Origin: an uncultured Gammaproteobacteria bacterium
GTDB taxonomy: Bacteria; Patescibacteriota; Patescibacteriia; Magasanikbacterales; GWA2-37-8
DNA: 64,000 bases
NCBI GenBank assembly: GCA_964634875.1
Contig: CAZWKA010000002.1
Coordinates: 79,590-143,589 of the forward strand
Direction of reading: 5' to 3'
The notes below the pieces were generated by a model. That model was given only the letters and a program-made list of their open reading frames with translations. It did no database searches and was not told the DNA's origin. The position numbers and the translations under genes are program-made. Below are positions 44,665-63,310 of this stretch, piece by piece (position 1 is the stretch's first letter; each line of letters starts with the position of its first letter).

Positions 44665-45897
44665 TTGCTTAAAATTTATAAAGATAGTATGCTTTATTTA
44701 GCCCAAAAAGTCAATATGAGCAAAAAAATAAAAATACTCTACGTTATTACCCAAGGCGCATGGGGAGGTGCCCAGCGCTACGTCTTTGATCTGGCCACAA
44801 ATCTTGGGCAGGATTTTGATATTTATATTGCTGTCGGCGAAGATACAGGACCGCATGATTTGCAAAAAAAACTAGAAGATTGGCAAGCGGAACATGCGCA
44901 GACAACTTTTACTATACTTTCGCTTAAGCACCTCTACCGCTCAATTAAGCCAACAGAAGACCTGCTCGCCGTCCTTGAACTTGCCAGAGCCTACCACCGC
45001 ATTAAACCTGACATCGTCCATTTAAACAGCACCAAGGCAGGCATCGTGGGATCCTTGGCAAAATGGGGGCGGTTTTTACGAAAAATGTCTGTAGTATATA
45101 CAGTTCACGGCTGGGTATTCAACGAACCGCTTAATCCTAAGGTTCGTTGGTTCTATGTTTGGCTTGAAAGATTGACTGCCAGTTTTAAGGAAAAAATTAT
45201 TGTTCTTTCTGAACCAGACCACCTCGACGGCCAAAAAGTCTTAGAAATTCCTCCAAACCGCTTTGCCACCATTCCCCTCGGTATTGACCCGCCAGAACCA
45301 GCGTGGAGCCCAATAAAGGCCCGAGAAGTCCTCGGTGCCTATCTCAGCATATCATCCCAAACACCACGACGATGGATCGGTACTATCGCTAACTTTTACC
45401 ACACCAAAGGGCTGGATATTTTGGTAGAAGCGGTTGCCAAAATCAAAGACCGTTTACCACCAATTTTATTTACATTTATTGGTGAAGGTCCTGGCCAACT
45501 ACTTTTGGAAACATTGATTAAAAAACATGAATTAACGGATACTATTTACCTCTCCGGTAGCTTAGAAAATGCCGCCAGTCTTATTCCGGCTTTCGACCTT
45601 TTTATAGTACCGTCCCGCAAAGAGGGCTTACCTTATGTTATCTTAGAAGCAATGGCTGTAGGTTGTCCGGTCATAGCTACGAAAGTGGGCGGTATTCCCA
45701 CCCTTATTGAGCATAAAAAAACCGGCCTCCTCGTTGACACACCAGAAGCCAGTTTGCTAGGGGAACAAATACTGTACGCCATTGCGCACATGGATGAAAT
45801 GGAAAGTTTTGCCAATCAAGCCAAAGAAAAAAGACAGTACTACACGCTTCCAACAATGACAGAAGGCACTAAGGCTATCTATTACTCCCTGACGTAG
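44665..45897 (+). CDS. GT4 glycosyltransferase
   Basis: Probable start at [10 protein letters not shown] (about 44716). [10 protein letters not shown]-terminal motif; [17 protein letters not shown]-terminal motif. Confidence 0.7.
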
Positions 45898-47926
45898 ACG
45901 ATACCACGAGCGCTTCAACCTGGCGCGCCTGGTCGTTAAATACTAATCCCCGTTCACGGGCGAGCGCCAAAATTTGGCGCGCTTTTTCGTTTTGACCCAT
46001 TAATTGATAGAGATAAGCAAAACGCCAATAGGTTTCTAAAATTTTCGGGTTGTCGTCAAGGGCTTGTTCCATGAGTTTGATGGCTTCGTCGTTTTTACCC
46101 AGCTGCAGTTTGAAATTAGCAAGCGTGTAGAGGAATTGCTGGCGGCGTGGCGAATAACTAAGACCAATCGTCATAAAACGTTCGGCATCCGTTATAAAGC
46201 TTGGATTATTGGTAACAGCAAAGCCAATCTGGCCAAGCTGCGAAAGAAGCAGGTACGTGCGTACGTCTGCGGGGTGGAGCCTCACGTTCTCTTGTAGGGC
46301 GCTATAAGCGGTATCAAGCAACGCAGTACTGTCAGCTTTAGGCAGTTTTTGGTAATTGTCACCAAGAATATCGGTCACTGTACGAGCAATATCACCACGG
46401 ATATCATCAACATGTGGCGAATTGAAAGCAATTGCTTCCTTGGCGGCAGCAAGACCTGTGGCTGGATTACGCGAGAGTTGCTGTAGGGCAAAAAGGGTTT
46501 TTTGGTTTGCCCTGGCTGGTTGAATATTAAATACAAAAATAAGCAACATACCAGCGCCGCCGACAATAGCCACAGACACAAATCCGACATTTCGGTCAGC
46601 ATTTTTGGAGACTCGCTCGCCTGTTTCTTCTAGCTCTTCCGCATAGAGCGGGCTACCCAAACGATTAACCATGGCCAGCCAAAAAACAAAATACAAATAG
46701 GACGTTGGATTTTCAAAAACCGTAATATTCTGGACAAGATGAGCGACCAGAAAACCAGTTCCCCAGGCAATCAAGTGGATACGCTTACCCCTGCTTTCCG
46801 GCCGTTGCCAAAGGGTTACGACAGCTAAAATAAAAATTCCCAGATATGCCAGCACCCCAAAAATACCTTGTACAGTAAGAGTATTCACTACTATATTATG
46901 GGCGTTATCAAACCATGTTTCTCCGTAACCGTATTCCAGCGAACGTGGGTTATAGTATTTGTTGAAAGCATAAAAAAAGTTATTTGGCCCCCAGCCAAAA
47001 ACCGGACGTTCCTTCCAACTATCCACACCGATTTTCCAAGCAATAAAACGCGTATCACCTGTCCCGCTCTTCAAAGAAGTACCAAGAAGACGTCCGATAG
47101 CCGGCAGGTTTTGGACAAAGGGTACGTGACGGAAAGCAAAGAGCACACCTACGAGCAGGACGCCTCCACCCATAACGCCATAAATAGTTAGTCGTAATTT
47201 TTTATTTTCTTTAAGTAAAAAGCTATAGCTTACAAAAACAACAAAGAGACCTGCCAGTAAACCTAAAACCGAGCCGCGGGTGCCACTGAAGAGCAACCCC
47301 AAGAGACTAAGAAGACCAAGGGCTGCATAGAGTGCCCGCAGAGCATTGGCTTTTTCTTTGAAGAAAAGAAGCATAGCCACAAAAAAGAGGAACAACCCAT
47401 AACCACCGACATAAATGGCGTTACCGAGCGTGCTAGCAACACGATCACTGCCCTGGTTTAAAAGAAGTTCGGGATTAATTTTTTGCATTACTCCAATTAC
47501 CATTACCAAGGAACCAGCAACTAAAAACACTTTAAGCGCCTGCTTCCAATCAGACCAATTTTTAAAAACACTTGTACAAACAAAGTAGTAGATAACGTAA
47601 TGGACGATCGTAAACAAGCCCAACATGCGTTCGTGGTTATCCCAAAAACTGTGATACGTATCAACACCCGTAAACGTTGAAAGCGCAAAACTTAAAAGAA
47701 ATGTGCCTAGCGCTAAACTGACAGCTGTAAATCGTGGACGATACACTTCATAGTTCGCCAACAGCAAAAGTACATATCCGCCAAGCATTGCGATAACAAG
47801 CGATCGGAACAAAAGCACCTTAGGGACAATAAACGGAAAAATAAAAGAACTTGGCGCAATAATTAAAGGAATGAAAAAAGTGGCATAGATAAGTAATTTT
47901 ACGACCCGCTCAATGGTTAATCTCAT
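45875..47926 (-). CDS. O-antigen ligase-like (Wzy_C) polytopic membrane domain fused to C-terminal TPR repeats
   Basis: About 12 TM helices, including the Wzy_C-like region (FSGTRGSVLGLLAG), followed by roughly 250 aa of TPR-like repeats. 683 aa. Confidence 0.6.
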   Translation of the reverse strand: MRLTIERVVKLLIYATFFIPLIIAPSSFIFPFIVPKVLLFRSLVIAMLGGYVLLLLANYEVYRPRFTAVSLALGTFLLSFALSTFTGVDTYHSFWDNHERMLGLFTIVHYVIYYFVCTSVFKNWSDWKQALKVFLVAGSLVMVIGVMQKINPELLLNQGSDRVASTLGNAIYVGGYGLFLFFVAMLLFFKEKANALRALYAALGLLSLLGLLFSGTRGSVLGLLAGLFVVFVSYSFLLKENKKLRLTIYGVMGGGVLLVGVLFAFRHVPFVQNLPAIGRLLGTSLKSGTGDTRFIAWKIGVDSWKERPVFGWGPNNFFYAFNKYYNPRSLEYGYGETWFDNAHNIVVNTLTVQGIFGVLAYLGIFILAVVTLWQRPESRGKRIHLIAWGTGFLVAHLVQNITVFENPTSYLYFVFWLAMVNRLGSPLYAEELEETGERVSKNADRNVGFVSVAIVGGAGMLLIFVFNIQPARANQKTLFALQQLSRNPATGLAAAKEAIAFNSPHVDDIRGDIARTVTDILGDNYQKLPKADSTALLDTAYSALQENVRLHPADVRTYLLLSQLGQIGFAVTNNPSFITDAERFMTIGLSYSPRRQQFLYTLANFKLQLGKNDEAIKLMEQALDDNPKILETYWRFAYLYQLMGQNEKARQILALARERGLVFNDQARQVEALVVSSTSGSNR

Positions 47927-48600: not shown

Positions 48601-49005
48601 TTACCACTCAAACGTATGTCGTAATTTTTTGACCAAAGAAGTGCGGCGCTTATTTTCGCCACGCCTTATCGCAGAAGCCTTAGTCGGCATGGTTTTTTGC
48701 CGGGTTTTCGGTTTTTTAAGCGCCTCGGCAACCAACTGGTTAAGCCGCTTAATGGCGGCTTCTCGGTTTTTAGACTGCGAACGGGTTTGTTCGGAGGCAA
48801 TCACCAATTCATCTCGACTGTTAAGGCGATTAGCAAGCTTATGACGGATACGCTCTTTCTGCTCAAGAGAAAAGGCCTGAGAGGTGCCGACCTGCCAATG
48901 AACAACGACTTTGGTAGCTGTTTTATTAACATTTTGCCCGCCAGGACCTGAAGCACGGGCGAAATTAATGGTAATTTCAAAAAGTGGAACGGGATGAATT
49001 GACAT
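48601..49005 (-). CDS. arfB: Alternative ribosome-rescue factor ArfB (peptidyl-tRNA hydrolase, RF-1 domain)
   Basis: GGQ motif (ASGPGGQNVNKT) and a basic C-terminal tail. 134 aa. Confidence 0.8.
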   Translation of the reverse strand: MSIHPVPLFEITINFARASGPGGQNVNKTATKVVVHWQVGTSQAFSLEQKERIRHKLANRLNSRDELVIASEQTRSQSKNREAAIKRLNQLVAEALKKPKTRQKTMPTKASAIRRGENKRRTSLVKKLRHTFEW

Positions 49006-49161: not shown

Positions 49162-49860
49162 TTAAGATTCGGCAGCAATTTTTTCTTTTAACTCCTCAAC
49201 GATTTTTTGGTACCCATTGCTCGGTAAATTTTCAACTAATACCTCGTAGTCTTTAAGTGCCGCCCGGTTATCACCAACACGTCGCAAATAAGAGCCACGA
49301 GCCGCAACAAGAGCTATGGGATTAAATAATTTTTCAATACCTTGTTTAAAGACAGCGAGAATTTCCTCCTTGCTCTTATGCATTTTGTAATCGTACAAAG
49401 TTGCCAGACTAATATACCCACTTTCATCCCCGGGTGAAATAGCGATTACCTGACGGTAATCTTGTTCGGCTCGGGCATAATCCTCGACAATTTCAGCAAC
49501 CTTGCCGTGATTTAAATAGAACAAAATGTTCTTAGAACCAAACCGCTCAATGCCTTCGTTGTATATTTTTAACGACTGCTCGTAAAAATCCCTTTGCCGA
49601 CGCGGAGCGAGCTCACCCAGACTCTTCCAGTTTAAACCGAGCGCCAAGTAAGCCGAAACTTTTTCGGGGTCTTCTTTAATTACCTGCTCATCTTTTTTAA
49701 TCTGGTCAGTGATAGCTACCAGGTCAGGGCGATCTTTAACAGCGGCCATAAGGCCGTGTTTGCTTTGTCCAAATATACCTTGATACCAAAGCCCAAAAAT
49801 AACCACCCCTGCCACCACGACACCAAGTATTCCGAGAAAATAAAATTTTTTGTTATTCAT
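49162..49860 (-). CDS. TPR-repeat protein with N-terminal TM anchor
   Basis: N-terminal hydrophobic helix followed by TPR-like helical repeats. 232 aa. Confidence 0.5.
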   Translation of the reverse strand: MNNKKFYFLGILGVVVAGVVIFGLWYQGIFGQSKHGLMAAVKDRPDLVAITDQIKKDEQVIKEDPEKVSAYLALGLNWKSLGELAPRRQRDFYEQSLKIYNEGIERFGSKNILFYLNHGKVAEIVEDYARAEQDYRQVIAISPGDESGYISLATLYDYKMHKSKEEILAVFKQGIEKLFNPIALVAARGSYLRRVGDNRAALKDYEVLVENLPSNGYQKIVEELKEKIAAES

Positions 49861-49869: not shown

Positions 49870-52137
49870 TTAACGCAAATTATTTTCTTTAATAAAGTCA
49901 TCGGCTTCTTCGCGCAGGCTCGGTTCAATGGCGACAGCCCGCTCGGCGTATTCAAGGGCTCCTTTTTTATTGCCCGCCAAGGCATAGAGAGCGGCTAAAC
50001 GTACATACCAATTTGGATTTTCAGGTTCGGCAGCAATGAATTCCTGATAGAGCTCTGCCGCAGCAGAGTACTCCTTGGCAACAGTGAAGATGTCAATGAC
50101 GTACATTTTTTGGTCAGGGGGCAAGTAAAGCCCTAACCTGCGGGCTTCTTGTATTTCTACAATAGCTTCAGCGTGCTTGTCGGCCGCCTGATAGGTAAGA
50201 CCCAAAAACCAATGGCTGGTTGGATTGCTGGGGTCAGCCGCAAGCGCTGCCTGCTGGACCTTGATTGCCTGGGCGAAATCTTTTTTCAAAAGATATAAAC
50301 GTCCCAGAAGGAATAAAATATCTTGTTTGCGCGGCGAAATTTCAACTGCCCGTTTGAGCTCGGTTTCGGCCTGGTCCAAATACTCAACTTTCCCCTCTGT
50401 ACCCAGCACCGAATATATCTGCCCAGCCCAAGCTGGGTAGGCGATCGTCAACGGGTGCGCCACTCCTTCATCATGAAGGACATTGGCCACGGCCACAGCA
50501 TCGTCTTCAGCCGCTTGGGCAATAGGAACTCCACTTTTATCCAAAAGAACAAAACGCTCCGCTAAAAACACCCCTGTTTCAGCACGAAAAGCTACGGGTA
50601 CAGCAAGTGCTGCCCGACTTTCACGCGCCCATTCGCTAGGCGTAAAAGTTTTTTGAGCGTTCTTGAGGTGATATGATGCCTTAAGGGGCAAAAGACTACC
50701 CTTGTAGAGCACAGAAACAAGCACCAATACGCCAAAACCTGCTGCTATTTTTTGGTACCACAGACCACGGGGCACCACAACACCTTCCCCTACCCTATTG
50801 CCGTCGACACCGCTGCTGATGGCTGCTAATAAAAAGAAAAATAAGAGGAGTGAGTTATTCGTTTCAAATAGAAATATTTGCTGCACACCATACGCCACCA
50901 ACACGCCTGTAAAAATGATCGAAGCAGCACGTGTCTGAATGCTTTTTTCTGAATCAGTAGCATCGCTAAAAATGAAGGATGGTTTTTTTAGTACATACCA
51001 AAGCGCAGCAGCGTAAATTCCAAGATACGCAGCCAAACCTACAATACCAGCACTACCCGCAATCTCCAAAAACCAGTTATGCGGTTTATCCCATACAGTT
51101 TCGCTGAAAGAGTGCTTTAAAAAACCTGGATTATAATACTTGCTAAACACGGCTTCGTAACTACCAATCCCCGACCCAAGTAGCGGATGCTCCTTAATAC
51201 CTTGCAAGGCTATCTGCCAAGCCCATAAACGTGTTTCACCTGTACCGGCAGTAAAATTACTAACATTAAAAAAATGACTAATCGATGGCAAATTAATAAT
51301 CATCCACGGCGTACGGGCAACTACTACAAGTACTGCACCCATAATAATTATACCCGAAAGACTCAATCCGGCAATTATTTTTGTTTTCTTTTTCGCCGCT
51401 AGCAACAGCGCCGCCACAACTGCCGCTATGATCCCAAATCCAAAACCAATTACTGACCCACGGGATTGGGTAAAGACAAGCGTTATACAGAGTGCTACCA
51501 CCCCCATTCCACACAGTGCGATTTTCCAAAAATTGGTCGCCTTGCCTTTCCAAGCAGTTACCCCGGCCAGGAGCGGGAGCGCGATGGCAGGCACAAGATA
51601 CATAGACAGGAAGTTAGGATTACCCAAAATTCCTTGTAAACGCTTTTCACCACCAAGACCCCAACCCGCAGGTAAACTCTTTTGAAAAAAAGCAGTCAAG
51701 ATAATTAAAAACAATACGACAATACTAATTAGTAATGCCCGTTTCCATTCTAAACTGGTCCATGTTTTTTTTAATAGAAAATACCATATTCCAAAATGAA
51801 TCCACGTTAAGGCTCCATTCGCGCGAGCCTGGTCACCCCAAAAACTGAGTGCAGGATTATTTCCTAAAAGTGAAGTTACTACCAGAAGTCCTATAAAAAG
51901 CACCACAGCCACATCGAGCTTGTTGTGCCACCATGGCATTTTTTTTAAGGATGTTTTATTTTCATCAATGAGTACTCCAACTAACACCAACGCCAAACAC
52001 AAACCAACCAAAATCTGAAAAATCATTGTTTTGCCAAAATGGGGGGCAAAGGCTGTAAAAGGAGTATAGAGGAGTGGTATCAAGAGTGTCAGGTACAGCA
52101 AATTTTTTCGTAGAAAATACAAATACTTCATAGTCAC
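49870..52137 (-). CDS. O-antigen ligase-like (Wzy_C) membrane domain fused to C-terminal TPR repeats
   Basis: 755 aa with a polytopic N-terminal region (FTQSRGSVIGFGFG) and C-terminal TPR repeats. It is a paralog-like copy of the 45875-47926 architecture. Confidence 0.6.
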   Translation of the reverse strand: MTMKYLYFLRKNLLYLTLLIPLLYTPFTAFAPHFGKTMIFQILVGLCLALVLVGVLIDENKTSLKKMPWWHNKLDVAVVLFIGLLVVTSLLGNNPALSFWGDQARANGALTWIHFGIWYFLLKKTWTSLEWKRALLISIVVLFLIILTAFFQKSLPAGWGLGGEKRLQGILGNPNFLSMYLVPAIALPLLAGVTAWKGKATNFWKIALCGMGVVALCITLVFTQSRGSVIGFGFGIIAAVVAALLLAAKKKTKIIAGLSLSGIIIMGAVLVVVARTPWMIINLPSISHFFNVSNFTAGTGETRLWAWQIALQGIKEHPLLGSGIGSYEAVFSKYYNPGFLKHSFSETVWDKPHNWFLEIAGSAGIVGLAAYLGIYAAALWYVLKKPSFIFSDATDSEKSIQTRAASIIFTGVLVAYGVQQIFLFETNNSLLLFFFLLAAISSGVDGNRVGEGVVVPRGLWYQKIAAGFGVLVLVSVLYKGSLLPLKASYHLKNAQKTFTPSEWARESRAALAVPVAFRAETGVFLAERFVLLDKSGVPIAQAAEDDAVAVANVLHDEGVAHPLTIAYPAWAGQIYSVLGTEGKVEYLDQAETELKRAVEISPRKQDILFLLGRLYLLKKDFAQAIKVQQAALAADPSNPTSHWFLGLTYQAADKHAEAIVEIQEARRLGLYLPPDQKMYVIDIFTVAKEYSAAAELYQEFIAAEPENPNWYVRLAALYALAGNKKGALEYAERAVAIEPSLREEADDFIKENNLR

Positions 52138-52186: not shown

Positions 52187-52230
52187 TAAAAAAACAACCC
52201 CCCGAACAAGTTCGAGGGGTGTGTTTTTTG
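52187..52230 (-). terminator. Rho-independent terminator downstream of the giant surface protein gene
   Basis: A-run, an imperfect GC stem (cccccgaac/gttcgagggg) and a T-run (gtgttttttg) between 52187 and 52230. Confidence 0.5.
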
Positions 52231-52266: not shown

Positions 52267-55200
52267 TTAGTAGGTGAAGGTCTTGTATTGCAATGGCAAG
52301 TCAAGGCCCATAGCTGTTAAGCCAGTAGAGACGCCATCCGACCATACGATACCGCCGTTAGGAATGCGGATCGAAAGGGACTTGGATTGAGCAGCGTCGC
52401 TGGTGTCTAAGGTCACGAAGAAAGTCTTCGAGGAACCAGACGAGATGCTGACATCAGTGAAGTTAGCATCGACGATAGTTGTAGCGCCGCTGATGGTTGG
52501 CATACCAGAACCATTGCTGTTGAAGTTTGTCGTAGCCAAGGCAGTCGTGTTAAGAGAGTCTTTGTAGACAGTCAAAGCACGGGCAGTGTTAAGACCGCCA
52601 GCCTGTGAAATGGTAGAGGACAATTCAAAGTTAATATGGCTAATGGTAGCTGTGTAGTTCCCAGCGTTTGCTAAGTTCGTAACAACAAACTTGCCAATCG
52701 TTTGGGCTGCAGCAGGAGAACCGGCTCCGTTAGGGGAATCGGAAGACCAGGCAGTTGTCAACTTAGCGCGGTACAAGGTAGTTGTAGCAGCGTAAGCAAC
52801 GCGGTTGGTGTTGAACGAGCCAGTGTTAACCTGGAAGATCTTAGTGCCAGAGTCAATGACGTCTGGGGTAATGACCGTACCAGATGAACCACCTGTAGAA
52901 GTAATTGAGAGGCTGTCGCCACTGTAATACTTCGCGAGGGCAAGGTTAACAACCTGGCCGGTGGTGGTAAGACCACTGTCATCGTACGTAACGATATCAG
53001 CTACAACCTGGAGAACTTTGGAAGCGCCTTTCGGTACTTGGAAAGTAAGATTGCTGAAGGTAGCGTGTACGAGGGTGGAGGTAGCACTACTGCTGTCAAA
53101 GGAAGGTACTGTTGTACCAATCTGTTGACCATTGTCATTGTCGATAAGTTTGATGTTGCGGAGTGTACCGGTAGCACCAGAACTTACGCGATTGCTGACA
53201 ACTAACTGAGTGATGTTGATCGGCTCAGTTGAAGAAGCAGTGACATTAAATTTACCAAGTAACTGACCAGTAGCACCCATCAAGTAGTTGGTGGTAACTG
53301 GAGTATCGGAATCGATAGCTACAGTGTAAGCACCAGCTGTTGAGACGTAGTTGTTCTGGAGAGAAACGGTAGGAGTTGTGTAGCTGGCGCTGCTGCCGGT
53401 TTTAACACCAGTTGCAGTTACAGCACTAACCTTGATCAAGTTTGAGCCACCAGTGTAGGCAGCCTTGAGGTCAGCGTAGATACCAACAGCGTACTGAGAA
53501 CCGTTAACAACGCGGATAGCCGGGGAGATGTTAAAGGTGTAGGTGTTGGCAGGATTACAGGAAGTAGCCTGTGGATTTGGGTAGGTTTGACCAAGTTGTT
53601 TGCCAGCGGCATCCTTCAAGGTCAAATTTTGCATCGTAGCACCGATACAGACAGTAGCGGTCTCAGTCAAAGTGACTTGAGAAACGTCAACGTCTTCTCC
53701 AGCTCCAGCGGTAATGATGAAAGAACCAACTTTAGCTTGAGTAGCGTTTACTGTTCCGTTCGGGTTGGTAGATGATTTGTCACCAAAGGAAGTGTCCTTG
53801 GTAACACTAACCGTACCAGATTTTACCGTTACAGTGTTGGCATTCTGTTCAACAGTCGAAAGCGAGCTGAGGGAAATAACGCCCTGAGCATTGCTCGATC
53901 CATCGTCCAAACCAACAGTGATAGTGTCGTTAGCTGCAATCGTAGCGTCTGTGGTGTCTGCAGTTACAGTAACGGTCGCAGTGGTGCCAGCTTTAATGAT
54001 AAAGCTACTACCAAAGGTACCGAAACCAGTGTTGGCAACGCCATTACCAGTCAAGCTAGTGATAGTCGTACCAACCTGAGATCCGTCAACTAACAAACGA
54101 ACGTTTGATAATTTATCGGTGTTTACAGCGGTAATAGTAGAAGAAACGCTGAGGCTTGATACCTTAACATCTTCACCATTGGCTTTCCAAAGCCACTTAC
54201 CGAGGGTTACGTTAGTAGCCGCGTCAGCAATGTTGCCAGTTGGAGAGTCGGAAGCGAGAGTCTGAGTGAGCGATCCAGTGTTAACACTGTAGTTCACTGC
54301 AGTTCCTGCTGAGTTTGGTTCAATGATATTGAAGCTGTCAGTACCATTGGCTTTCAAGAAGACATTGTATCCACGGTCGTAGACAACGATGTCAGAAGAG
54401 TTCTGCAAGGTAGCGCGGAATTGGCGGTTAGTACCGGCAACAACGTCAGCCTTGAGGCTCAAAATCTTGGTTTGTCCTTTGGTAATAACATATGGAGCTG
54501 CTGACCAGTCGAACCAGACAGTTTTGTCTGAGCTCATGTCAGCAACGGTTGAACCGATCTGGGTTGCACCGTCCCAAAGAGAGAAATTCTTGAGGTCACC
54601 AACGTTGACTGAGCCAACGATCGTGAAGTTCAATTTGCGAATTTCAGTATCCTGAGCAGTGTTTTGAACCTGGATTCTCCAGATTTCGTATCCAGTTGTA
54701 CCAGGATCTACCGTTGCGTTAGCAGATGGAGCAGAGCTGGTGAAAGCAAGTTTACCAAGATCCGTTACCGAAGCTGTAGTAAACATGTTGCTGGACAATG
54801 GGAAGCTTCCACTTACAGTACCAGAGGTAGTGATAATGGAAGAAGCAGCCTGGACAGAGAATCCAATCGTCTTACCAGAGGTAACGGCGGTTTTGAGATC
54901 CATCTTGACCCATACTGGCTTAACAGTTCCGCGGCTTACGGTGAAAAGACCGGAAGAGTTGGAGAAAGTTACTAAACCATTGGAAATGCTTGGATTTGAT
55001 CCAACTTTAACACCCATGTCATCGTAGAGGTACAAGTTGCTGATATCGGTATCAGCAGAAATACCTGTTCTCTTCAATTGAACAGAGGTAACTTTTACAT
55101 CTCCATCGTTACCGGCGGAGAAGTTCAATTTTAAGACTGGGATTTGTCCCTGAGCACCATTGGTGGTATCAGAAACGATCGTGGTAGCAAAAGGGTTGTC

Positions 55201-55992
55201 ACTCGCAAGTGAAACACTAAGGCTTCCATTTTGAGTTGGGCTTGGGTTGCCAACTACACCACCGCTCTGAGTCTTGTCCGTGAGGGCTTTGACTTCAGCA
55301 GTGATAGCTACGTCGGTCATCAAACCAGCAACCGCACTGTCTGAGACAGCGTGGACAAACTTAGTCTGGAAACCGTTAGCTGTCATACCAGTGGAAGTTA
55401 CTTCTTGCAACTTACCATCTTTGTTGACATACCAAGTTTTGCCGCCGTTTGAGACGAGCATACCTGGGTGTACTTTAGCTTCAGTTACGTCTGCACCGCG
55501 CTGGGTGTAATGTGGCCAGAAAGCATCGTCAACGACCATAACTTTGTAGTTAGTGCCGTAGAGAGCTTTGGCTGCATCAGCCGTAATTTTTGACAAGGTG
55601 TTGCCCGGTAATACAACGTAGAGTTGGTCGGAAGAAGGGCGCTTCACGACATAGGAACCTGGTTGGTAGTTAACTGCACCAGGGTAGGTACTAGGTACCG
55701 ACAAAGAGTCGAAACAAGCCTGATCGATAGAAACATATCCACCGTAGGTTGGTCTCCAGCTCTTGAAAACGTCACCATTTGGGAAGTAAAGGACTTTGAG
55801 GTCGTTGTTAACAGCGTAAATAGCTGGTTTGCCAGTTACTTTAAGCATGTCGCCAGCGTTCAATGTAGGACATACAGCTGCCTGAGCGGCGAGCGGTAAA
55901 AGCGCAGCATTGAGACCGGAGAAGACTACGGTAACAGCAACGGAAACGACGACGTTCACAATCTTTCTTCCGAGTTTTTTTACATCGTTCAT
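52267..55992 (-). CDS. Giant secreted/surface protein, Ser/Thr/Gly/Asn/Val-rich with repeated beta-rich (Ig-like) modules
   Basis: 1241 aa. N-terminal signal or anchor sequence (VVVSVAVTVVFSGLNAALLPLAAQAAV). The remainder is low-complexity Ser/Thr-rich repeats of about 100-130 aa. No enzymatic motifs. Confidence 0.6.
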   Translation of the reverse strand: MNDVKKLGRKIVNVVVSVAVTVVFSGLNAALLPLAAQAAVCPTLNAGDMLKVTGKPAIYAVNNDLKVLYFPNGDVFKSWRPTYGGYVSIDQACFDSLSVPSTYPGAVNYQPGSYVVKRPSSDQLYVVLPGNTLSKITADAAKALYGTNYKVMVVDDAFWPHYTQRGADVTEAKVHPGMLVSNGGKTWYVNKDGKLQEVTSTGMTANGFQTKFVHAVSDSAVAGLMTDVAITAEVKALTDKTQSGGVVGNPSPTQNGSLSVSLASDNPFATTIVSDTTNGAQGQIPVLKLNFSAGNDGDVKVTSVQLKRTGISADTDISNLYLYDDMGVKVGSNPSISNGLVTFSNSSGLFTVSRGTVKPVWVKMDLKTAVTSGKTIGFSVQAASSIITTSGTVSGSFPLSSNMFTTASVTDLGKLAFTSSAPSANATVDPGTTGYEIWRIQVQNTAQDTEIRKLNFTIVGSVNVGDLKNFSLWDGATQIGSTVADMSSDKTVWFDWSAAPYVITKGQTKILSLKADVVAGTNRQFRATLQNSSDIVVYDRGYNVFLKANGTDSFNIIEPNSAGTAVNYSVNTGSLTQTLASDSPTGNIADAATNVTLGKWLWKANGEDVKVSSLSVSSTITAVNTDKLSNVRLLVDGSQVGTTITSLTGNGVANTGFGTFGSSFIIKAGTTATVTVTADTTDATIAANDTITVGLDDGSSNAQGVISLSSLSTVEQNANTVTVKSGTVSVTKDTSFGDKSSTNPNGTVNATQAKVGSFIITAGAGEDVDVSQVTLTETATVCIGATMQNLTLKDAAGKQLGQTYPNPQATSCNPANTYTFNISPAIRVVNGSQYAVGIYADLKAAYTGGSNLIKVSAVTATGVKTGSSASYTTPTVSLQNNYVSTAGAYTVAIDSDTPVTTNYLMGATGQLLGKFNVTASSTEPINITQLVVSNRVSSGATGTLRNIKLIDNDNGQQIGTTVPSFDSSSATSTLVHATFSNLTFQVPKGASKVLQVVADIVTYDDSGLTTTGQVVNLALAKYYSGDSLSITSTGGSSGTVITPDVIDSGTKIFQVNTGSFNTNRVAYAATTTLYRAKLTTAWSSDSPNGAGSPAAAQTIGKFVVTNLANAGNYTATISHINFELSSTISQAGGLNTARALTVYKDSLNTTALATTNFNSNGSGMPTISGATTIVDANFTDVSISSGSSKTFFVTLDTSDAAQSKSLSIRIPNGGIVWSDGVSTGLTAMGLDLPLQYKTFTY

Positions 55993-56021
55993 AATAAATA
56001 ATTTAATTCCTTACCCACCTG

Positions 56022-56047
56022 CGCCCCGCCTAAACGGAGTCAGATGA
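56022..56047 (-). promoter_or_regulatory. Possible ECF-type promoter (GAAC-N17-CGTT) upstream of the giant surface protein gene
   Basis: The minus-strand sense reads GAGAACC-ttagttcatctgactc-CGTTTA, about 30-55 nt upstream of the ATG at 55992. It resembles AAC/CGT ECF consensus elements. Confidence 0.25.
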
Positions 56048-56159
56048 ACTAAGGTTCTCCCGATACACACACCACTGCGGTGAACATAGAGCGGGATACA
56101 ATGATCAGGCAAGCCCGTATGGGCTTTCGACCTAGGCACTGACCTTTTTCAAAACTAAT

Positions 56160-56214
56160 TCTCTCCCCCATTCTTTTTACCAAAGCGTATCTTGGTAAAA
56201 AGTAGGGAGAGAGT
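56160..56214 (-). terminator. Long imperfect hairpin directly after the anti-sigma stop codon (putative terminator or attenuator)
   Basis: Outer stem tctctccc/gggagaga and inner stem ctttttaccaa/ttggtaaaaag (11 bp) with an 8-nt loop. It separates the sigma/anti-sigma operon from the surface protein gene. Confidence 0.45.
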
Positions 56215-56219
56215 AATTT

Positions 56220-57563
56220 TTATTTTAACGAACTTGAGCTTGCTGTACTGGTTATCACTGCAGCCGTCCCTGAAACCATTACGACAATTGGTTTTTGATC
56301 CGGGGTTGTTGTTACAACTACCATCACTGTTCCGGTTGAGGCAGAGAGTGATGCGTCGTTTTGATCCTTAATGACCTGAACTATTGGTAACACTGTTTTT
56401 ACTTTAGCTAGTGTTGTGTCGGAAATTTTTTCTGCTGCTTTGCTAGCTTCAGTCACCTGTTTTATAGCTTCTACCGCTCGAGTAAGGTCGCCGGTTGCAA
56501 TCAGGGCTTTCGCTTCGGTAATTGTCTTGTCTACCTGGAGGGAAACAGCATCGGTCTTAAACGCTGCGTCTTTTGTTTCAGCAGCGACACTAGAGATGGT
56601 TTCATTAAAGCCTTTGGTAGAGGTGGCCAGAGCTCCGGCTGTTTTACTGTTAACGCCAGTGGTTAAATCTTTCACTTCATTCTTTACTACTTCGACAATA
56701 TTCTTTACACCATCGACATGACCTTTAGAGCCACCAATATCGCTGGCAGCAGTATCAAGTGCACTCGTTATAATACCGTTAACCGCTTCTTTAGAGATGC
56801 TGTGATCATCGGCCAAATGTTTGGCAATAACTACTTCAATCGTTTTTACTCCAGTATCTTTGGCGAGATCCTTAGCAACACTTACTTCTTTTGACAGGTC
56901 ACTGTCAGCAGTTGTCGCGCTCGTCTGCAAATTATCTTTTACTTCCTGGAGGGCGACTTTGATGTTGTCAGTATTTTCTTGGATCGTAGTAACCACTTGT
57001 GGCAAGAGCGTTTGAGTGGAAGAGTTTTTGATGCTTTCTAAATTCTTATTAACATTTTCAAGTTCATTTTTAAGGTCGGAGACTGTTTCAGCAATATGAA
57101 ATTTCTTGTCTGGATTGTTAACAATCTGCTTGGCTTCCTCTGCGCGGCGACCTGCCAATTCAAGACTAAATTTTGCTTGGTCATTGGAAGTGCCGACCAA
57201 GGCAACGCGTGTTTTTTCTACCGCCTCAAAAGCACGCTTGACCGGATAGAGCACCTGGTCCCCAGGAAGCGCGTCGTTTGAAGCGTTGGCGCTAAAGGCA
57301 TAACTGCTGGTCGCGAGCACTGCCACCATAACAACCCCCACTACCGGACGGACAAAGTTATAAACAAAGGCACGGGGGAAAAAAATAGACAAAGCCGACC
57401 ATACCCGTTCAAGCCTGACAGCCGCAGTGGTTTCCCCGGAGTTCGATACGGTATTTTTTACCTGAGACAAAAGAAGCGCGCGGTTATTCTTTACCCATTC
57501 CTCGCGCGGATTGATATCGGCATGCCGGATCTTTTTAAGTTGTCGGATCAATTCAGTTTCCAT
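56220..57563 (-). CDS. Putative anti-sigma factor (single-pass; cytoplasmic N-domain, extracytoplasmic coiled-coil domain)
   Basis: Immediately downstream of, and 6 bp from, an ECF sigma gene. It has one TM helix (VVGVVMVAVLATSSYAF) and a long Lys/Glu/Ala/Thr-rich extracytoplasmic region. Confidence 0.5.
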   Translation of the reverse strand: METELIRQLKKIRHADINPREEWVKNNRALLLSQVKNTVSNSGETTAAVRLERVWSALSIFFPRAFVYNFVRPVVGVVMVAVLATSSYAFSANASNDALPGDQVLYPVKRAFEAVEKTRVALVGTSNDQAKFSLELAGRRAEEAKQIVNNPDKKFHIAETVSDLKNELENVNKNLESIKNSSTQTLLPQVVTTIQENTDNIKVALQEVKDNLQTSATTADSDLSKEVSVAKDLAKDTGVKTIEVVIAKHLADDHSISKEAVNGIITSALDTAASDIGGSKGHVDGVKNIVEVVKNEVKDLTTGVNSKTAGALATSTKGFNETISSVAAETKDAAFKTDAVSLQVDKTITEAKALIATGDLTRAVEAIKQVTEASKAAEKISDTTLAKVKTVLPIVQVIKDQNDASLSASTGTVMVVVTTTPDQKPIVVMVSGTAAVITSTASSSSLK

Positions 57564-57569
57564 ACCTTA

Positions 57570-58151
57570 TTATTGTTTGGCAATTTCTTTTAATTTTTTG
57601 AGGGCGCGGTGAAGCGTTACACGGACGGCGATCGCACCTTTGCCGGTGATCTCTCCAATTTCATCCATTTCAAGTTCATCAACAAACCGCAGTATTATTA
57701 TTTCTTGATATTCTTGTTTCAATTTTTTAAGTGCCTGGACCAGTTTTTCATTTTCAATCTTAATCTCTAATTTTTCGTGCCACGCCCCCCTATCACCAAC
57801 TTCCGTTTCTTCGTTGAGGAGCAAGGGTTCTTTGGCCCGGCTGCGATACAAGTCTATAATTGATGTCCGGGCAACGCGGTACAAAAGTCCGCTAAAACTT
57901 TTTACTTCCTTATTTTCGCGGAGATAATTCCAGGTTTTAAGGAACACATCAGCGGTAACATCTTCGGCTTCTTCTCTTGAGCTAACTTTAAAATAAACAA
58001 AACGGTAGATTTGTTTAACATAAACATCGTACAACTGGCCAAAAGCTTCTGGGTCTTGTTTGGCCTGGATACGATACAGTAGCAGCTTTTCAGAGATCTT
58101 GTTCATTAATGAAGACGCCAAAAATAAAAAAATGTTACACTTCAGAAACAT
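57570..58151 (-). CDS. RNA polymerase sigma-70 family ECF sigma factor
   Basis: Region 2 (VTADVFLKTWNYL) and region 4 HTH (ILRFVDELEMDEIGEITGKGAIAVRVTLHRALKKL). Real start probably at MNKISEKL. Confidence 0.8.
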   Translation of the reverse strand: MFLKCNIFLFLASSLMNKISEKLLLYRIQAKQDPEAFGQLYDVYVKQIYRFVYFKVSSREEAEDVTADVFLKTWNYLRENKEVKSFSGLLYRVARTSIIDLYRSRAKEPLLLNEETEVGDRGAWHEKLEIKIENEKLVQALKKLKQEYQEIIILRFVDELEMDEIGEITGKGAIAVRVTLHRALKKLKEIAKQ

Positions 58152-58352
58152 TCTCTCACGAACTTCTATATTCTATAGCTGTAATAAGCATTTTTGAACT
58201 TCCTTAAGCACCTCTGGGGCTTCTTAAACTACTCCTTAAAATACCAAAAAAACGCCTTAACGTCAAATAATACCCCCCTTTTTAAAACCCTCAAGATCAT
58301 TGCTTCTGTAACGCGCTTCTTAGGACGCCGGTCAAGAAAGCTTTTCTTTTTA

Positions 58353-58382
58353 TTATTTGTATATACTATCCTATACAAATAA
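58353..58382. promoter_or_regulatory. Operator-like inverted repeat TTATTTGTATA-N8-TATACAAATAA
   Basis: Perfect 11-bp arms (58353-58363 and 58372-58382). It lies in the divergent region between the ECF sigma gene and the Xis-HTH gene. Confidence 0.5.
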
Positions 58383-58426
58383 TAATTTTTGAACGTAGGG
58401 CTAAAATAAGGTCATTTTTTGATTAT

Positions 58427-58448
58427 TTGTATACACAAGTGTATACAA
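58427..58448. promoter_or_regulatory. Second operator-like inverted repeat TTGTATACA-CAAG-TGTATACAA sharing the TTTGTATA half-site
   Basis: Perfect 9-bp arms with a 4-bp spacer. The upstream direct repeat TTATTTGTATA is shared with the first palindrome. Confidence 0.5.
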
Positions 58449-60883: not shown

Positions 60884-60929
60884 AAAGGAGGAAGAGACGA
60901 CCCAGCCGAACACAGGTTAGACCTGCGTT

Positions 60930-61613
60930 CTAGAACGGGGGCGGCGGGACGGGACGGCGGGGCTTCTTTTTGACCACCTTCTTCTTGGGCGGGACAACGA
61001 CCTTCTTCTTCGCACAATCCTTGGCGAGCACATCGCGATCGAGCTCGAGATCCTTGATGCGACGCTCCGCCGCGCGCTGCACGAGGGCGGCTGAGGTGCG
61101 GTAGAAAAAGTAGGTACCAGAACAGACAAGCAAGCCGACGACAGCAGCCAGCAGACAGGCCGACTTGAACAGCCTGCTGTCATCCTTGGCAGCTACAAGA
61201 GCCTGCTGCGCTTGCAACTTTTCGGCAGCCTCGGCTCGGAACAACTGATCCTTCTGATCGAGACTGGCGGCAGCGGCCTTGCGTGTGGCCTCGAGACGAG
61301 CCTCCAGCTGCTGGGCACGCTCGAGGGCGTCCTTTTCAGCACGAGTTGCCGTGCAGGCCTGCTGCTCCAGCTTATTAGCCCGAAGCGCTTCTTGGTCGGC
61401 CACCTCTTCAGCGGCCGCGGTCACGCGGCAGAGCGCAACCAGAGCGTTACACTCGAAGGGGTGAGCCTGGACCAAGTCGGCCCAGTTCATAGACACGAGC
61501 TTTGCAGGCACAGGAATCGTCTTTTTGGACATGAAACCCTCCAGTAAAAAGTTTACATACCTCTTTGAGGCATGCTTCCTTAAATACTCTATAGCTGATA
61601 GAGAACTTAACAA
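60930..61613 (-). CDS. Coiled-coil single-pass membrane protein (GC-rich island gene 1)
   Basis: Probable start at the ATG at 61532 (MSKKTIPV), preceded by a GGAGGG ribosome-binding site. Ala/Glu/Arg/Gln-rich coiled coil, a TM helix (ACLLAAVVGLLVCSGTYFFY) and a Lys/Pro-rich C-terminal tail. GC-rich codon usage unlike the neighbouring genes. Confidence 0.45.
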   Translation of the reverse strand: MLSSLSAIEYLRKHASKRYVNFLLEGFMSKKTIPVPAKLVSMNWADLVQAHPFECNALVALCRVTAAAEEVADQEALRANKLEQQACTATRAEKDALERAQQLEARLEATRKAAAASLDQKDQLFRAEAAEKLQAQQALVAAKDDSRLFKSACLLAAVVGLLVCSGTYFFYRTSAALVQRAAERRIKDLELDRDVLAKDCAKKKVVVPPKKKVVKKKPRRPVPPPPF

Positions 61614-61645
61614 AACATGCCTTATTTTTAAGGAACTAACGCCTA

Positions 61646-61674
61646 ACTATAGCACATTTTTACCCTTTTGTCAA
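61646..61674 (-). promoter_or_regulatory. Sigma70-like promoter (TTGACA-N17-TATAGT) for GC-island gene 1
   Basis: The minus-strand sense reads cTTGACAaaagggtaaaaatgtgcTATAGT, about 110 nt upstream of the ATG at 61532. Confidence 0.55.
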
Positions 61675-61680
61675 GGTTGT

Positions 61681-61718
61681 CGGCCAAAACAAAAACAACC
61701 GTTTTGTGCGGTTGTTTT
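61681..61718 (-). terminator. Rho-independent terminator (minus strand) after GC-island gene 2 and repeat B
   Basis: Stem aaaacaaccg/cggttgtttt with a ttttgtg loop. The minus-strand RNA then has a U-rich tail (uuuguuuugg). Confidence 0.5.
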
Positions 61719-61733
61719 GGCTTGAGAAACCCT

Positions 61734-61787
61734 CCAGTAGAAGTTCCTACCACCTTGGTAAAGGTAGTAAAAGCTTGGATCTACTGG
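61734..61787. repeat. Structured repeat element copy B (54 nt)
   Basis: Same position relative to GC-island gene 2 (3' UTR, before the terminator). Same outer 8-bp stem, with an inner 7-bp stem carrying a compensatory G-C to C-G change relative to copy A. Confidence 0.6.
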
Positions 61788-61868
61788 AGTGAGTATAAAG
61801 TGATGACCCTTGCCGAAAACGAGTTTTCACTCATTCTCTAGACAGCTCGGGCCACGGAACCTCTCTGG

Positions 61869-62654
61869 CTAGCTGCCCTCGGCCTTCAGACGCTGGGCGC
61901 GCAGATGGGCCTTGCGGGCAGCCTTCTTGAGGGCACGCCGCTCGTCGGCCTGGCGAGCCTCGTTGACCTGGCGCTGCAGGGCCTTCTGGCCCTGTTCGGC
62001 CTCGATCAGCTCGCGATCGCGGGCGTCCACGGCCTTCTCCAACGTACGGGCGTTCGCCTCACTGCTCGTGGCCGCAAAGCGCGCCTCGGCGATGGCACGA
62101 TCCTTCTGGATGAGTCTCTTTGCGTACTCGTTGTACTGGTAGAGACTGAAGGCCGAACAGAAGGCCGTGAACACCATGAAGACGAGGACGAAGCGGCGGC
62201 TGCGTCTCTTGGTTTTCGCTCGGTGGCTCTTGGCGAGGCTGGTGCGAACATCGGCCACAGCGTCGCGCTGATCGATGATGGTCGCGGCGAGCGCTTGCAC
62301 GAGAGCAAGGTGCGCTGCGGCCTGGTTCTTCAGCTCACGGTGGAAGTAGAGGGCAACCGCGACTCTCGCCTTTTCCGCGAGGCGAAGCTCCTCCAGGTGA
62401 CTCTGGCGCGTTTCCCGGCGCTCGGTGATGAGCTCCTGGATACGAATGGAGCGACCCACGAGATCAACCAGCAGCTGCTGGATGATGCGGCGGCTCTGTG
62501 CCAGATCGTCCTGGAGGGTGAGCATACGGAGGCCATGGCTCACCAGGGTGCTGGCGTCCGGCGTCGGATCCGCCTGGACGAGGCGGAGCGGCGGGAACTG
62601 GGGCAGCGTGGCCGAAGAGCCGGGCTTGGCATGCGAAGCGACAATATCATCCAT
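61869..62654 (-). CDS. Coiled-coil single-pass membrane protein (GC-rich island gene 2; architecture paralogous to gene 1)
   Basis: GGGAGG ribosome-binding site 5 nt upstream of the ATG. Coiled-coil regions flank a TM helix (FVLVFMVFTAFCSAFSLYQY). It has the same promoter, gene, 3' repeat and terminator layout as gene 1. Confidence 0.45.
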   Translation of the reverse strand: MDDIVASHAKPGSSATLPQFPPLRLVQADPTPDASTLVSHGLRMLTLQDDLAQSRRIIQQLLVDLVGRSIRIQELITERRETRQSHLEELRLAEKARVAVALYFHRELKNQAAAHLALVQALAATIIDQRDAVADVRTSLAKSHRAKTKRRSRRFVLVFMVFTAFCSAFSLYQYNEYAKRLIQKDRAIAEARFAATSSEANARTLEKAVDARDRELIEAEQGQKALQRQVNEARQADERRALKKAARKAHLRAQRLKAEGS

Positions 62655-62774
62655 GATGGTGTCCTCCCAAAAACAGGTTATACATCCGCACCTAGGGTTA
62701 AGGTGCGTTCCCGCAAAAGCTCAGTAAAAGCTTTTAAGGAAAAACACCTTATATTTCAAAGACCACGACAAACC

Positions 62775-62803
62775 AGCCTAGTACATTTTAGCCGTTTTGT
62801 CAA
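62775..62803 (-). promoter_or_regulatory. Sigma70-like promoter (TTGACA-N17-TAGGCT) for GC-island gene 2, homologous to the gene 1 promoter
   Basis: The minus-strand sense reads TTGACAaaacggctaaaatgtacTAGGCT. It can be aligned to the gene 1 promoter block (TTGACAAAAGGGTAAAAATGTGCTA...). Confidence 0.45.
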
Positions 62804-62835
62804 GATATGCTCAGCATTAAACCTTAATTTTAGCT

Positions 62836-62872
62836 AAAAAAAGAAAGCCCTGGCTAGGTGTACTAGCCAGGA
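62836..62872 (-). terminator. Rho-independent terminator (minus strand) after the Pro-rich lipoprotein gene
   Basis: 9-bp stem cctggctag/ctagccagg with a gtgta loop, followed on the minus strand by a U-run (from the plus-strand aaaaaaagaaag). Confidence 0.55.
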
Positions 62873-62908
62873 CTTGAAGAAGGACTCCCTAGAAGAACAA
62901 CGTGCCGC

Positions 62909-63310
62909 CTACTCAGCCAACACGCAGATCAGCTGCCACTCCTGTTGAGTAGCCGGAGCCGGAGGGGGCGGTGGAGGAGGGGCCGGTGGAAGTGGCGGGT
63001 TTGGAGGGGGCGGATCAAGCCGACCGAGTTGGACAGTGAAACCGTCTTGCCCCGGGGGATTACAGAGCACGGTATCACCACTTCGAACGCACTCCAGCAC
63101 TGTCCTTGCGCGTTCACCGGTAGTGATAGTACATCGGCTTGGCGCTCGCGGGATCACTGCCAAAATATCGGGGGCGACAGGAATGAACTCTACGTCCGAC
63201 TCATGACTGACGGTCGACCCAAAGCCTCCACCAACACCATAGGCAACCAAGGCCGGACAACCTGGTAACAGCACAAGCACACACGGCAAAAAACACGTCG
63301 TGAGCTTCAT
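62909..63310 (-). CDS. Putative lipoprotein with poly-proline C-terminal region
   Basis: Signal peptide with a lipobox-like LLPGC and a C-terminal PPPPNPPLPPAPPPPPPPAP stretch. GC-rich. Followed by a rho-independent terminator. Confidence 0.4.
   Translation of the reverse strand: MKLTTCFLPCVLVLLPGCPALVAYGVGGGFGSTVSHESDVEFIPVAPDILAVIPRAPSRCTITTGERARTVLECVRSGDTVLCNPPGQDGFTVQLGRLDPPPPNPPLPPAPPPPPPPAPATQQEWQLICVLAE

Follow-up and report, generated by a model that had tools for sequence, protein, structure and literature searches.

The window, a stretch of 64,000 nucleotides (nt) of contig CAZWKA010000002.1 (assembly GCA_964634875.1), carries three neighbouring genes that encode an extracytoplasmic function (ECF) sigma factor, a single-pass membrane protein with a DUF5667 domain and a large secreted protein of coat type, and beyond them lies an island of glycan genes (Table 1). 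According to the list of open reading frames (ORFs) of the window, the three genes are co-oriented on the minus strand. An earlier interpretation of the same letters without database searches (hereafter the sequence-only reading) had also described them as co-oriented, and had proposed that, under envelope stress, the sigma/anti-sigma pair controls a glycosylated surface or S-layer-like protein through an ECF-type promoter in the leader of its gene. Its observation was partly confirmed and its interpretation partly supported: the genes and their likely link were recognised correctly, whereas the proposed promoter turned out to be a chance motif. The locus sample consisted of five contigs found via the large protein and 80 further genomes found by a sigma search; an alignment of 27 homologues of the large protein was too divergent for the locus search, and the sigma alignment was used in its place. 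The order sigma, DUF5667, large protein was found in 5/5 contigs chosen via homologues of 34–56% identity and in all sigma-found loci with enough downstream DNA (about 70 of 70, in Patescibacteria genomes). With its order kept across related loci, the trio of sigma factor, membrane partner and secreted protein was borne out as a real functional unit.

Table 1. Features of the sigma–DUF5667–coat locus and its surroundings (positions in the window, order of transcription)
Feature	Position	Strand	Description
Operator-like palindrome	58427..58448	-	TTGTATACActtgTGTATACAA; divergent region between HTH_17 and sigma genes
Second palindrome copy	58379..58356	-	TTTGTATA..TATACAAA; same divergent region
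Sigma-70-type promoter	58238..58266	-	TTGACG-17-TATTTT with TG extension; upstream of sigma gene
ECF-type autoregulatory promoter (predicted)	58114..58139	-	TGTAAC-N16-CGTC; CGTC ends 7 nt before sigma ATG
ECF (group 4) sigma factor	57570..58106	-	178 amino acids; corrected start is M16 of the listed ORF
DUF5667 protein, presumed anti-sigma factor	56220..57563	-	Pfam DUF5667; single-pass membrane protein, extracytoplasmic DUF5667 domain
Hairpin-1	56158..56214	-	long, nearly perfect stem; CUCUCUCC pairs with GGAGAGAG
Leader motif A	56103..56144	-	outer stem P1, 5' bulge, hairpin P2 with CAUAnG loop, then AUUGUA
Leader hairpin P3	56057..56097	-	sequence variable between loci; fold of window leader
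Leader motif B	56009..56056	-	outer stem S1, loop UCUGAC, hairpin S2, loop GCGCAG
Secreted coat-type protein	52267..55992	-	1,241 amino acids; signal peptide, alpha/beta N-domain, Ig-like domains
Intrinsic terminator after coat gene	52188..52220	-	GC stem then U-tract; canonical
Wzy_C (O-antigen-ligase-type) membrane protein	49870..52137	-	Pfam; C-terminal TPR; candidate protein O-oligosaccharyltransferase
Small TPR protein	49860..49162	-	after first Wzy_C+TPR gene
Second Wzy_C+TPR protein	47926..45875	-	Pfam

The ORF listed for the sigma factor (58151..57570) contains the Pfam domains Sigma70_r2 and Sigma70_r4_2 only, and the protein scores 89.3 bits against the NCBIfam model TIGR02937 (sigma70-ECF; cut-off 42.9), which bears out its identity as an ECF sigma factor. 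The best NCBIfam subfamily is BldN (TIGR02952), at 119.5 bits below an equivalog cut-off of 206.45, and the closest solved structures by sequence are SigW 5wuq (E 3.6e-31) and then BldN 6dxo (E 4e-28). Directly upstream of the sigma ATG, the pattern TGTAAC-N16(15-17)-CGTC is present in 82/86 loci, and the gap from the -10 element to the start codon is exactly 7 nt in 67/82 of these. On both strands of the 64-kb window this site is the sole match of at least 8 bits to the ECF promoter model (36.8 bits), while the exact TGTAAC-N16-CGTC pattern would be expected 0.04 times by chance. The autoregulatory AAC/CGT promoter looked for as a mark of an ECF sigma factor is therefore present upstream of its own gene. 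Since the N-termini of six orthologues (the window protein and five others) align and the promoter abuts that ATG in the same 82 loci, the start of the sigma gene was set at 58106 (MNKISEK...) and not at 58151. ECF promoters initiate about 6–8 nt after the CGT element; with a gap of 7 nt, the sigma mRNA made from this promoter should therefore be leaderless, as well as autoregulated. The sigma gene has no Shine-Dalgarno sequence. Further upstream, a sigma-70-like site of a score comparable to that in the window is found in 84% of the loci.

The same motif was used to survey possible targets of the sigma factor. In 1.17 Mb of related loci, 82 sites lie before the sigma gene itself and four elsewhere, but never before the gene of the large protein, and in 85 related loci the 8 kb to each side of the sigma gene contained no other ECF site.

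The DUF5667 gene begins 7 nt after the sigma stop codon in the window, and mostly within a few nt of it across 64 loci. Its product, of 447 amino acids, has one hydrophobic segment (about residues 66–93), and in the 64 loci its best-conserved parts are the N-terminal 40 amino acids and the juxtamembrane segment. A sigma-coupled gene, a single membrane pass and a short conserved cytoplasmic N-terminus, three features by which an anti-sigma factor may be recognised, are all found in this protein. However, it matched no anti-sigma model in Pfam or NCBIfam and no PDB entry with E below 0.1, and the hallmarks of zinc-binding anti-sigma factors are absent, as its N-terminal 65 residues contain neither Cys nor HxxxCxxC. 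Of the anti-sigma claim made earlier, the co-oriented single-pass partner thus stood, whereas a known anti-sigma domain or a match to a solved structure did not appear. A literature search returned no paper mentioning DUF5667.

The third gene encodes a protein with a signal peptide (residues 1–38, cleaved between AQA and AV) and a Ser/Thr-rich (24.3% Ser+Thr), Cys-poor and mildly acidic composition, in line with the 1241-residue Ser/Thr-rich secreted protein of the sequence-only reading. It has no Pfam or NCBIfam match, and neither an SLH nor a CWB2 domain. The AlphaFold2 model, built from a 94-sequence alignment, reached a predicted local distance difference test (pLDDT) of 90.8 and consists of an N-domain (about residues 39–245) with three beta-beta-beta-alpha repeats, followed by roughly 8–10 immunoglobulin (Ig)-like beta-sandwich domains; the N-domain modelled alone reached a pLDDT of 94.5. 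The beta modules announced earlier correspond to these Ig-like domains, whereas internal sequence repeats were not found by self-BLASTP at E<=1e-3. A Foldseek search with the model returned only tandem-Ig arrays, with TM-scores about 0.1, including PrgB, macroglobulin and complement domains, integrin legs and the S-layer (surface layer) protein 8c8m of the archaeon Nitrosopumilus. The N-domain alone gave weak matches to EccB repeats (E about 3e-3). Many members of the family align only from about residue 200 onward, and in the homologues P0026 and P0071 a PG_binding_1 domain stands in place of the N-domain, suggesting that the N-domain may be a swappable wall anchor.

According to an exhaustive search, the family comprises 689 cluster representatives at E<=1e-30 and 2,094 at E<=1e-3, and the named records belong to Magasanik-, Falkow-, Uhr- and Parcubacteria. 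Instead of an S-layer subunit, the protein might be an adhesin, or a fibre with which an episymbiotic cell contacts its host. Tandem Ig-like arrays are a common trait of adhesins, one of the best structural matches is PrgB, and Patescibacteria are generally seen as episymbionts. However, adhesins usually vary in repeat number, whereas the homologues here keep a nearly constant length of about 1,200–1,270 amino acids with 34–60% full-length identity across orders, and the window protein has no internal sequence repeats. Its Ser/Thr-rich, Cys-poor and mildly acidic composition also speaks against an adhesin, as does its neighbourhood, which resembles that of S-layer glycosylation (slg) loci. We consider the adhesin unlikely, and an S-layer-like coat subunit would fit these properties better than a variable adhesin.

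The region between the DUF5667 and coat genes is a spacer of 227 nt, in which the sequence-only reading had placed the promoter of the coat gene, GAAC-N17-CGTT. This pattern does exist in the leader (56057..56033), about 40 nt upstream of the coat ATG, and it loosely resembles the generic AAC/CGT consensus of ECF promoters. However, several comparisons speak against its function as an ECF promoter. It occurs at chance frequency in the window (three found versus 2.25 expected, with 36/100 shuffles reaching three), and the promoter model derived from the sigma family gives it -9 bits, compared with 25.8 bits for the site of the sigma gene. It is not conserved either, since the closest relative (L006) lacks CGTT and has GCTGCTTCGGCAGC at that position, which keeps a hairpin. 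In the window, GAAC (56057..56054) lies at the 5' base of stem S1 and CGTT (56036..56033) inside S2, so that both halves are paired in the conserved RNA motif B described below. Among the 64 homologous spacers, the best ECF-like sites are no better than those of shuffled sequences (median -5.2 versus -3.6 bits), and no conserved site matching the promoter model of the sigma factor was found. A separate ECF-dependent promoter of the coat gene is thus highly improbable, and comparison with the related loci largely refutes it. A generic AAC/CGT match in a leader is no evidence of an ECF promoter; the cognate one can be recognised by comparing the upstream regions of orthologous sigma genes. What stands of the claim is that the coat gene is likely ECF-controlled by way of the sigma-gene promoter and read-through, and not by way of a promoter in its own leader; envelope stress as the signal is hypothetical.

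Promoters of other types were also looked for in the spacer. Over the spacer and the final 150 nt of the DUF5667 gene, sigma-70-like sites were found in 8% of the loci, which equals the coding background (11%). An extended -10 promoter in the AT-rich stretch before P1 was considered and rejected, as the hexamer matches at most 1–4 of 6 positions.

The spacer folds far better than its shuffled versions (z = -5.0) and, judging from the comparison of related loci, is a conserved multi-helix structured RNA with four parts, namely hairpin-1, motif A, P3 and motif B. Both the long hairpin and the leader of about 230 nt had been seen in the sequence-only reading, and the hairpin extends over 56214..56158. 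In about 38/40 loci, hairpin-1 has a stem of 20–28 bp, with a mean folding free energy of -30 kcal/mol and a mean z of -5.5, and at its base a pyrimidine run UUUCUCUCC pairs with a purine box GGAGAGAGAAA in 35/40 loci. The distance from hairpin-1 to motif A is fixed at 13–20 nt in 30/31 loci, whereas that to the stop codon upstream ranges between 61 and 405 nt, with extra DNA in some loci; hairpin-1 is therefore part of the leader rather than of the preceding gene.

The 5' bulge of motif A has the form (C)AAAGGUCGA across loci, with CCUAGGUCGA as the window version (56136..56127). In a MAFFT alignment of 33 sequences, 86.9% of the cells are paired compared with 72.9% in shuffles, compensatory changes occur in 13/14 pairs, and the covariation score is 0.53, against 0.28 for shuffles and at most 0.21 when the partners are slid. 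G-U pairs are frequent, indicating that motif A is formed by RNA of the sense strand. A covariance model of motif A found 40 matches in 1.22 Mb; each locus has a single one, located without exception in this spacer. The match in the window covers 56155..56085 with 66.4 bits, and in the fitted covariance-model alignment 92.6% of the cells are paired and 12/13 pairs show compensatory changes. A looser scan for an RGUYGN core followed by a hairpin succeeded in 59/64 spacers, distant Patescibacteria classes included. The position of P3 is occupied in other loci by a hairpin of different sequence.

Motif B has less firm support than motif A. Its family loops UYUGAC and GCGCAR are present as anchors in 32/38 distinct leaders, and the motif ends 14–22 nt before the AUG (about 17 nt in the window). 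S1 has at least 5 bp in 22/32 leaders (null 24%) and S2 at least 4 bp in 22/32 (null 20%), while the covariation score of S1 is 0.56 versus 0.31 in shuffles, counting the hand-specified outer stem. RNAalifold predicted no pairs on the MAFFT alignment of motif B, because the hairpin lengths vary. A pairing between the bulge of motif A and a loop of motif B was considered and rejected, as the two sequences are not antiparallel complements. When the whole window was searched against Rfam 15, nothing reached the gathering score, and with the leader at a permissive threshold (E<=10) only spurious matches to microRNA hairpins appeared; no tRNA or transfer-messenger RNA was found in the window. Two short Logan contigs (L086 and L087), hardly longer than the gene and viewed as possible assembled transcripts, were uninformative, with ends that do not match any leader element.

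Some relatives carry inserts in the leader (L013, 9870–10134; L036, 10010–10417; L010, 9870–10334). The insert of L013 lies between hairpin-1 and motif A and is flanked by duplicated TTGTTTATTAG, and that of L036 lies between the stop codon and hairpin-1 and is rich in TTGACAT and GGAAATT repeats. They look like small mobile elements tolerated by the leader. Downstream of the leader motifs, a Shine-Dalgarno sequence is lacking at the usual distance from the start of the coat gene (55993–56010 in the window, and likewise in homologous loci). The 15–20 nt before its AUG are nearly all A/U, e.g. AAUUAAAUUAUUUAUUAUG, and the nearest purine run is the 3' strand of motif B, about 17 nt upstream.

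Long structured 5' leaders before a highly expressed coat gene have been reported for slpA of Lactobacillus acidophilus and L. crispatus, and structured 5' untranslated regions stabilise the S-layer mRNAs of Lactobacillus (PMC3666127). The leader described here is likewise long and structured, but has no sequence or structural similarity to the slpA leaders; it differs in its conserved single-stranded AAAGGUCGA, UGAC and GCGCA elements, in a possible upstream processing hairpin and in its conservation across classes of one phylum. Instead of stabilising the mRNA passively, this leader might have a sensing or recruiting function, which would be compatible with co-transcription of the three genes. 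It could be a protein operator (for example, with feedback of unassembled coat protein, or of a different RNA-binding protein, on the AAAGGUCGA bulge), a riboswitch-like element, or a processive antitermination element of the EAR/ops kind that takes RNA polymerase through the long gene. The bulge AAAGGUCGA and the loops UGAC and GCGCA are conserved in sequence while the stems covary, which is the usual signature of ligand or protein contacts, and the element spans several Patescibacteria classes. However, it occurs as a single copy per locus and nowhere else in the window or the loci, whereas many riboswitches control more than one operon; neither a ligand nor a binding protein emerged as a candidate, and no similarity to any Rfam family was found. 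A sensing or recruiting role is thus rather doubtful.

Taken together, we propose, with a probability of roughly 50%, that the locus is a conserved Patescibacteria operon in which a dedicated ECF sigma/anti-sigma pair controls an S-layer-like coat protein that is anchored to the wall and probably glycosylated. In this operon the sigma factor would transcribe its own leaderless mRNA, and transcription would continue through the DUF5667 gene into the coat gene, giving one sigma–DUF5667–coat transcription unit driven by the sigma-70 and ECF promoters of the sigma gene. A single unit is the simplest reading because the spacer has no recognisable promoter, terminators in it are rare, and hairpin-1 acts as RNA right after the stop codon. 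Canonical terminators were found in 10/64 spacers, compared with 46/58 of the regions after the large gene. Hairpin-1, with a stem of a length suited to cleavage by RNase III, would be a processing site; the 5' end of the 3.7-kb coat mRNA would be shielded by motifs A and B, which would also set its translation, and the abundance of the protected mRNA would be uncoupled from that of the regulators. The DUF5667 protein would hold the sigma factor at the membrane until some cell-surface signal frees it, and the Wzy_C-TPR proteins would move glycan from the adjacent 50-kb island onto the Ser/Thr-rich coat protein. For the expression of the coat gene, co-transcription with processing or stabilisation of its mRNA appears most likely from the comparison of loci.

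Several points weigh against this proposal. Co-transcription, processing and leaderless initiation are all deduced from sequence, the anti-sigma role of the DUF5667 protein is presumed from its position and topology only, and lattice formation, abundance and glycosylation of the coat protein are putative. A Wzy_C gene lies just downstream of the large gene in only 36/64 loci. Hairpin-1 of the window is followed by UUAGUUUU, and partial termination is therefore possible, and a canonical terminator does occur in the spacer of some distant loci (e.g., L003). Not only the pairing but also the sequence of the purine box GGAGAGAG is conserved, and the box could be part of an unrecognised promoter. 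Furthermore, very strong promoters are normally required for S-layer genes, and those known are not co-transcribed with other genes (PMC2943079). Partial termination at hairpin-1 and an unrecognised promoter over the purine box are thus serious rivals to simple read-through.

Accordingly, the locus might consist of two transcription units, in which hairpin-1 ends the sigma/DUF5667 transcript and the coat gene has a promoter of an unrecognised type, lying over the purine box and the AT-rich 16 nt before motif A, with the P1 stem at the start of its mRNA; in that case the sigma pair would have other targets and would be conserved as a neighbour. This would account for the purine box sequence kept in 35/40 loci at a fixed 13–20 nt from P1 and for the U-rich run after hairpin-1 in the window. 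It would also agree with the monocistronic S-layer genes found elsewhere (PMC2943079) and with the 5'-terminal stem-loop as a classic stabiliser of mRNA (PMC3666127). However, neither a sigma-70-like nor an ECF-like promoter was found in the spacer, and canonical terminators are rare there. The 5' arm of hairpin-1 is kept for its pairing, indicating that hairpin-1 acts as RNA, and transcription from upstream is therefore required. As the 8-kb flanks of the sigma gene contain no other ECF site in the 85 loci, the sigma factor also has no visible target besides its own operon. We regard two separate units as on the unlikely side, though to be taken seriously, and the single operon as the preferred reading.

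The proposed glycosylation is based on the genes that follow the coat gene. The sequence-only reading had placed a glycosylation machinery upstream of the surface protein gene; such genes do adjoin it, but they are upstream only in window coordinates and downstream in the direction of transcription. After the Wzy_C and TPR (tetratricopeptide repeat) genes come about 45 kb of glycan genes, encoding GT2, GT4 and PMT-type GT-C glycosyltransferases, GDP-mannose dehydratase-type enzymes, a DegT aminotransferase, an MBOAT acyltransferase, methyltransferases, a cytidylyltransferase and HisH/HisF-like proteins, together with a complete sulfate-activation and sulfotransferase set. In the slg loci, WsaB and WsfB (Wzy_C) and the TPR protein WsaA are the proposed components of the S-layer O-oligosaccharyltransferase (PMC2943079). 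The loci of Geobacillus stearothermophilus (sgsE with wsaA/wsaB) and Paenibacillus alvei (wsfB) likewise have a surface-protein gene beside a glycan cluster, with Wzy_C either fused to TPR (WsfB, PglL) or accompanied by a small TPR protein (WsaA), and both arrangements are present in the window (PMC2943079). The arrangement typical of slg loci, with a Wzy_C candidate with TPR, GT2 and GT4 glycosyltransferases and nucleotide-sugar genes adjoining the structural gene, was thus found here. The window differs in that Pfam recognised no Wzm/Wzt or WbaP, that GT-C/PMT proteins, the sulfation set and two Wzy_C paralogues are present, and that a sigma/anti-sigma pair is apparently linked with the structural gene, in contrast to the S-layer genes known elsewhere, which are monocistronic. 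Among the 55 ORFs of at least 150 amino acids, Pfam detected no Wzm/Wzt ABC exporter, flippase or WbaP/WecA-type initiating transferase, though several membrane ORFs without a Pfam match could serve. By analogy with the slg loci, the link between this island and glycosylation of the coat protein is plausible.

The sulfation set (6277–12256, minus strand) comprises an APS (adenosine 5'-phosphosulfate) kinase, a CysQ-type phosphatase, a sulfotransferase and a fusion protein of 751 amino acids, which unusually combines a pyruvate-kinase barrel, a PUA-like domain and ATP sulfurylase. The gene content points to a sulfated surface glycan. A protein of 134 amino acids with an RF-1 domain (ArfB-type peptidyl-tRNA hydrolase; 48601–49005, minus strand) is encoded between the Wzy_C-TPR genes and the rest of the glycan island.

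Two known systems offer a comparison for the regulatory pair. In the sigma-BldN/RsbN/chaplin-rodlin system of Streptomyces, an ECF sigma factor with a membrane anti-sigma factor unlike the classical domains likewise drives genes of a self-assembling coat (PMC6101532). BldN was the best NCBIfam subfamily and 6dxo the second-best PDB sequence match for the window sigma factor, which nevertheless falls below the family cut-off (119.5 versus 206) and is thus not a member, while the DUF5667 protein has no detectable similarity to RsbN or to any solved chain. The coat gene here lies in the same apparent operon, whereas the coat genes of the BldN system are at dispersed promoters. In Bacillus subtilis, the genes of sigma-W, sigma-X and sigma-M are likewise followed by that of the anti-sigma factor under positive autoregulation, and SigW 5wuq is the closest solved relative of the window protein. 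The Bacillus ECF consensus sequences, TGAAAC-N16-CGTA and TGTAAC-N17-CGAC, have the same architecture as TGTAAC-N16-CGTC. The differences are that the -10 element here lies 7 nt from the ATG, which predicts a leaderless mRNA, that the DUF5667 partner lacks a zinc-binding or RsiW-type anti-sigma domain, and that the only regulon visible in 1.17 Mb of neighbourhoods is the operon itself. On sequence grounds, the window system may be said to resemble both the BldN/RsbN/chaplin and the sigma-W-type operons and to be a member of neither subfamily.

Ultra-small Patescibacteria have a distinctive envelope, with a surface layer seen by microscopy. Literature searches on S-layers of Patescibacteria or the Candidate Phyla Radiation (CPR), on ECF sigma factors in Patescibacteria and on S-layers of Magasanikbacteria returned nothing on the coat gene or its regulation, and the main text of the ECF re-classification paper makes no mention of these phyla. 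Neither Rfam nor the literature searched describes the leaderless ECF geometry, a coat gene apparently lying within a sigma operon, the covarying leader RNA or the coat family. The locus thus provides a concrete candidate for a coat gene, from a family of about 690 cluster representatives that has no Pfam model, along with the two regulators, a sharply defined ECF promoter from which leaderless translation is predicted, and a leader RNA that is new and shows covariation. Tentatively, these elements could form a surface-coat homeostasis circuit of Magasanik-, Uhr- and Falkowbacteria, in which the sigma factor has its own operon as sole regulon, the DUF5667 protein monitors coat or wall assembly, and the leader RNA (hairpin-1, the AAAGGUCGA bulged stem-loop and the UGAC/GCGCA element) serves as the processing and sensing device that sets S-layer output; we hold this to be speculative.

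The region upstream of the sigma gene is conserved as well. A divergent HTH_17 (excisionase-type) gene is found there in 74/80 loci, and a gene for a protein of 582 amino acids comes next after it in 45/71. Both palindromes between the HTH_17 and sigma genes (58356–58448) are TTGTATACAA-type sites. Across loci, GTATAC is present in this intergenic region in 56/82 cases, at a density of 3.7 per kb versus 0.24 per kb overall (about 15-fold). The conserved HTH_17 protein probably has its operator in these palindromes, and the operon would then be under a third level of control.

Many of the records with this Patescibacteria module are titled 'uncultured Gammaproteobacteria bacterium' (e.g., L006, L009, L010 and L012; binchicken and SRP co-assemblies). 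Their gene content and the 60–88% identity of their sigma factors to those of Magasanikbacteria suggest that these titles are mislabels.

Finally, a stretch of about 2.5 kb in the window (60900–63350) has a G+C content of 53–55%, compared with about 44% elsewhere. It contains three minus-strand ORFs (227, 261 and 133 amino acids; coiled-coil or proline-rich) without a Pfam match, and it separates the gene of the 582-residue protein from metK, the homologues of which are about 325 nt apart in L001. This stretch looks like an insertion of foreign DNA.

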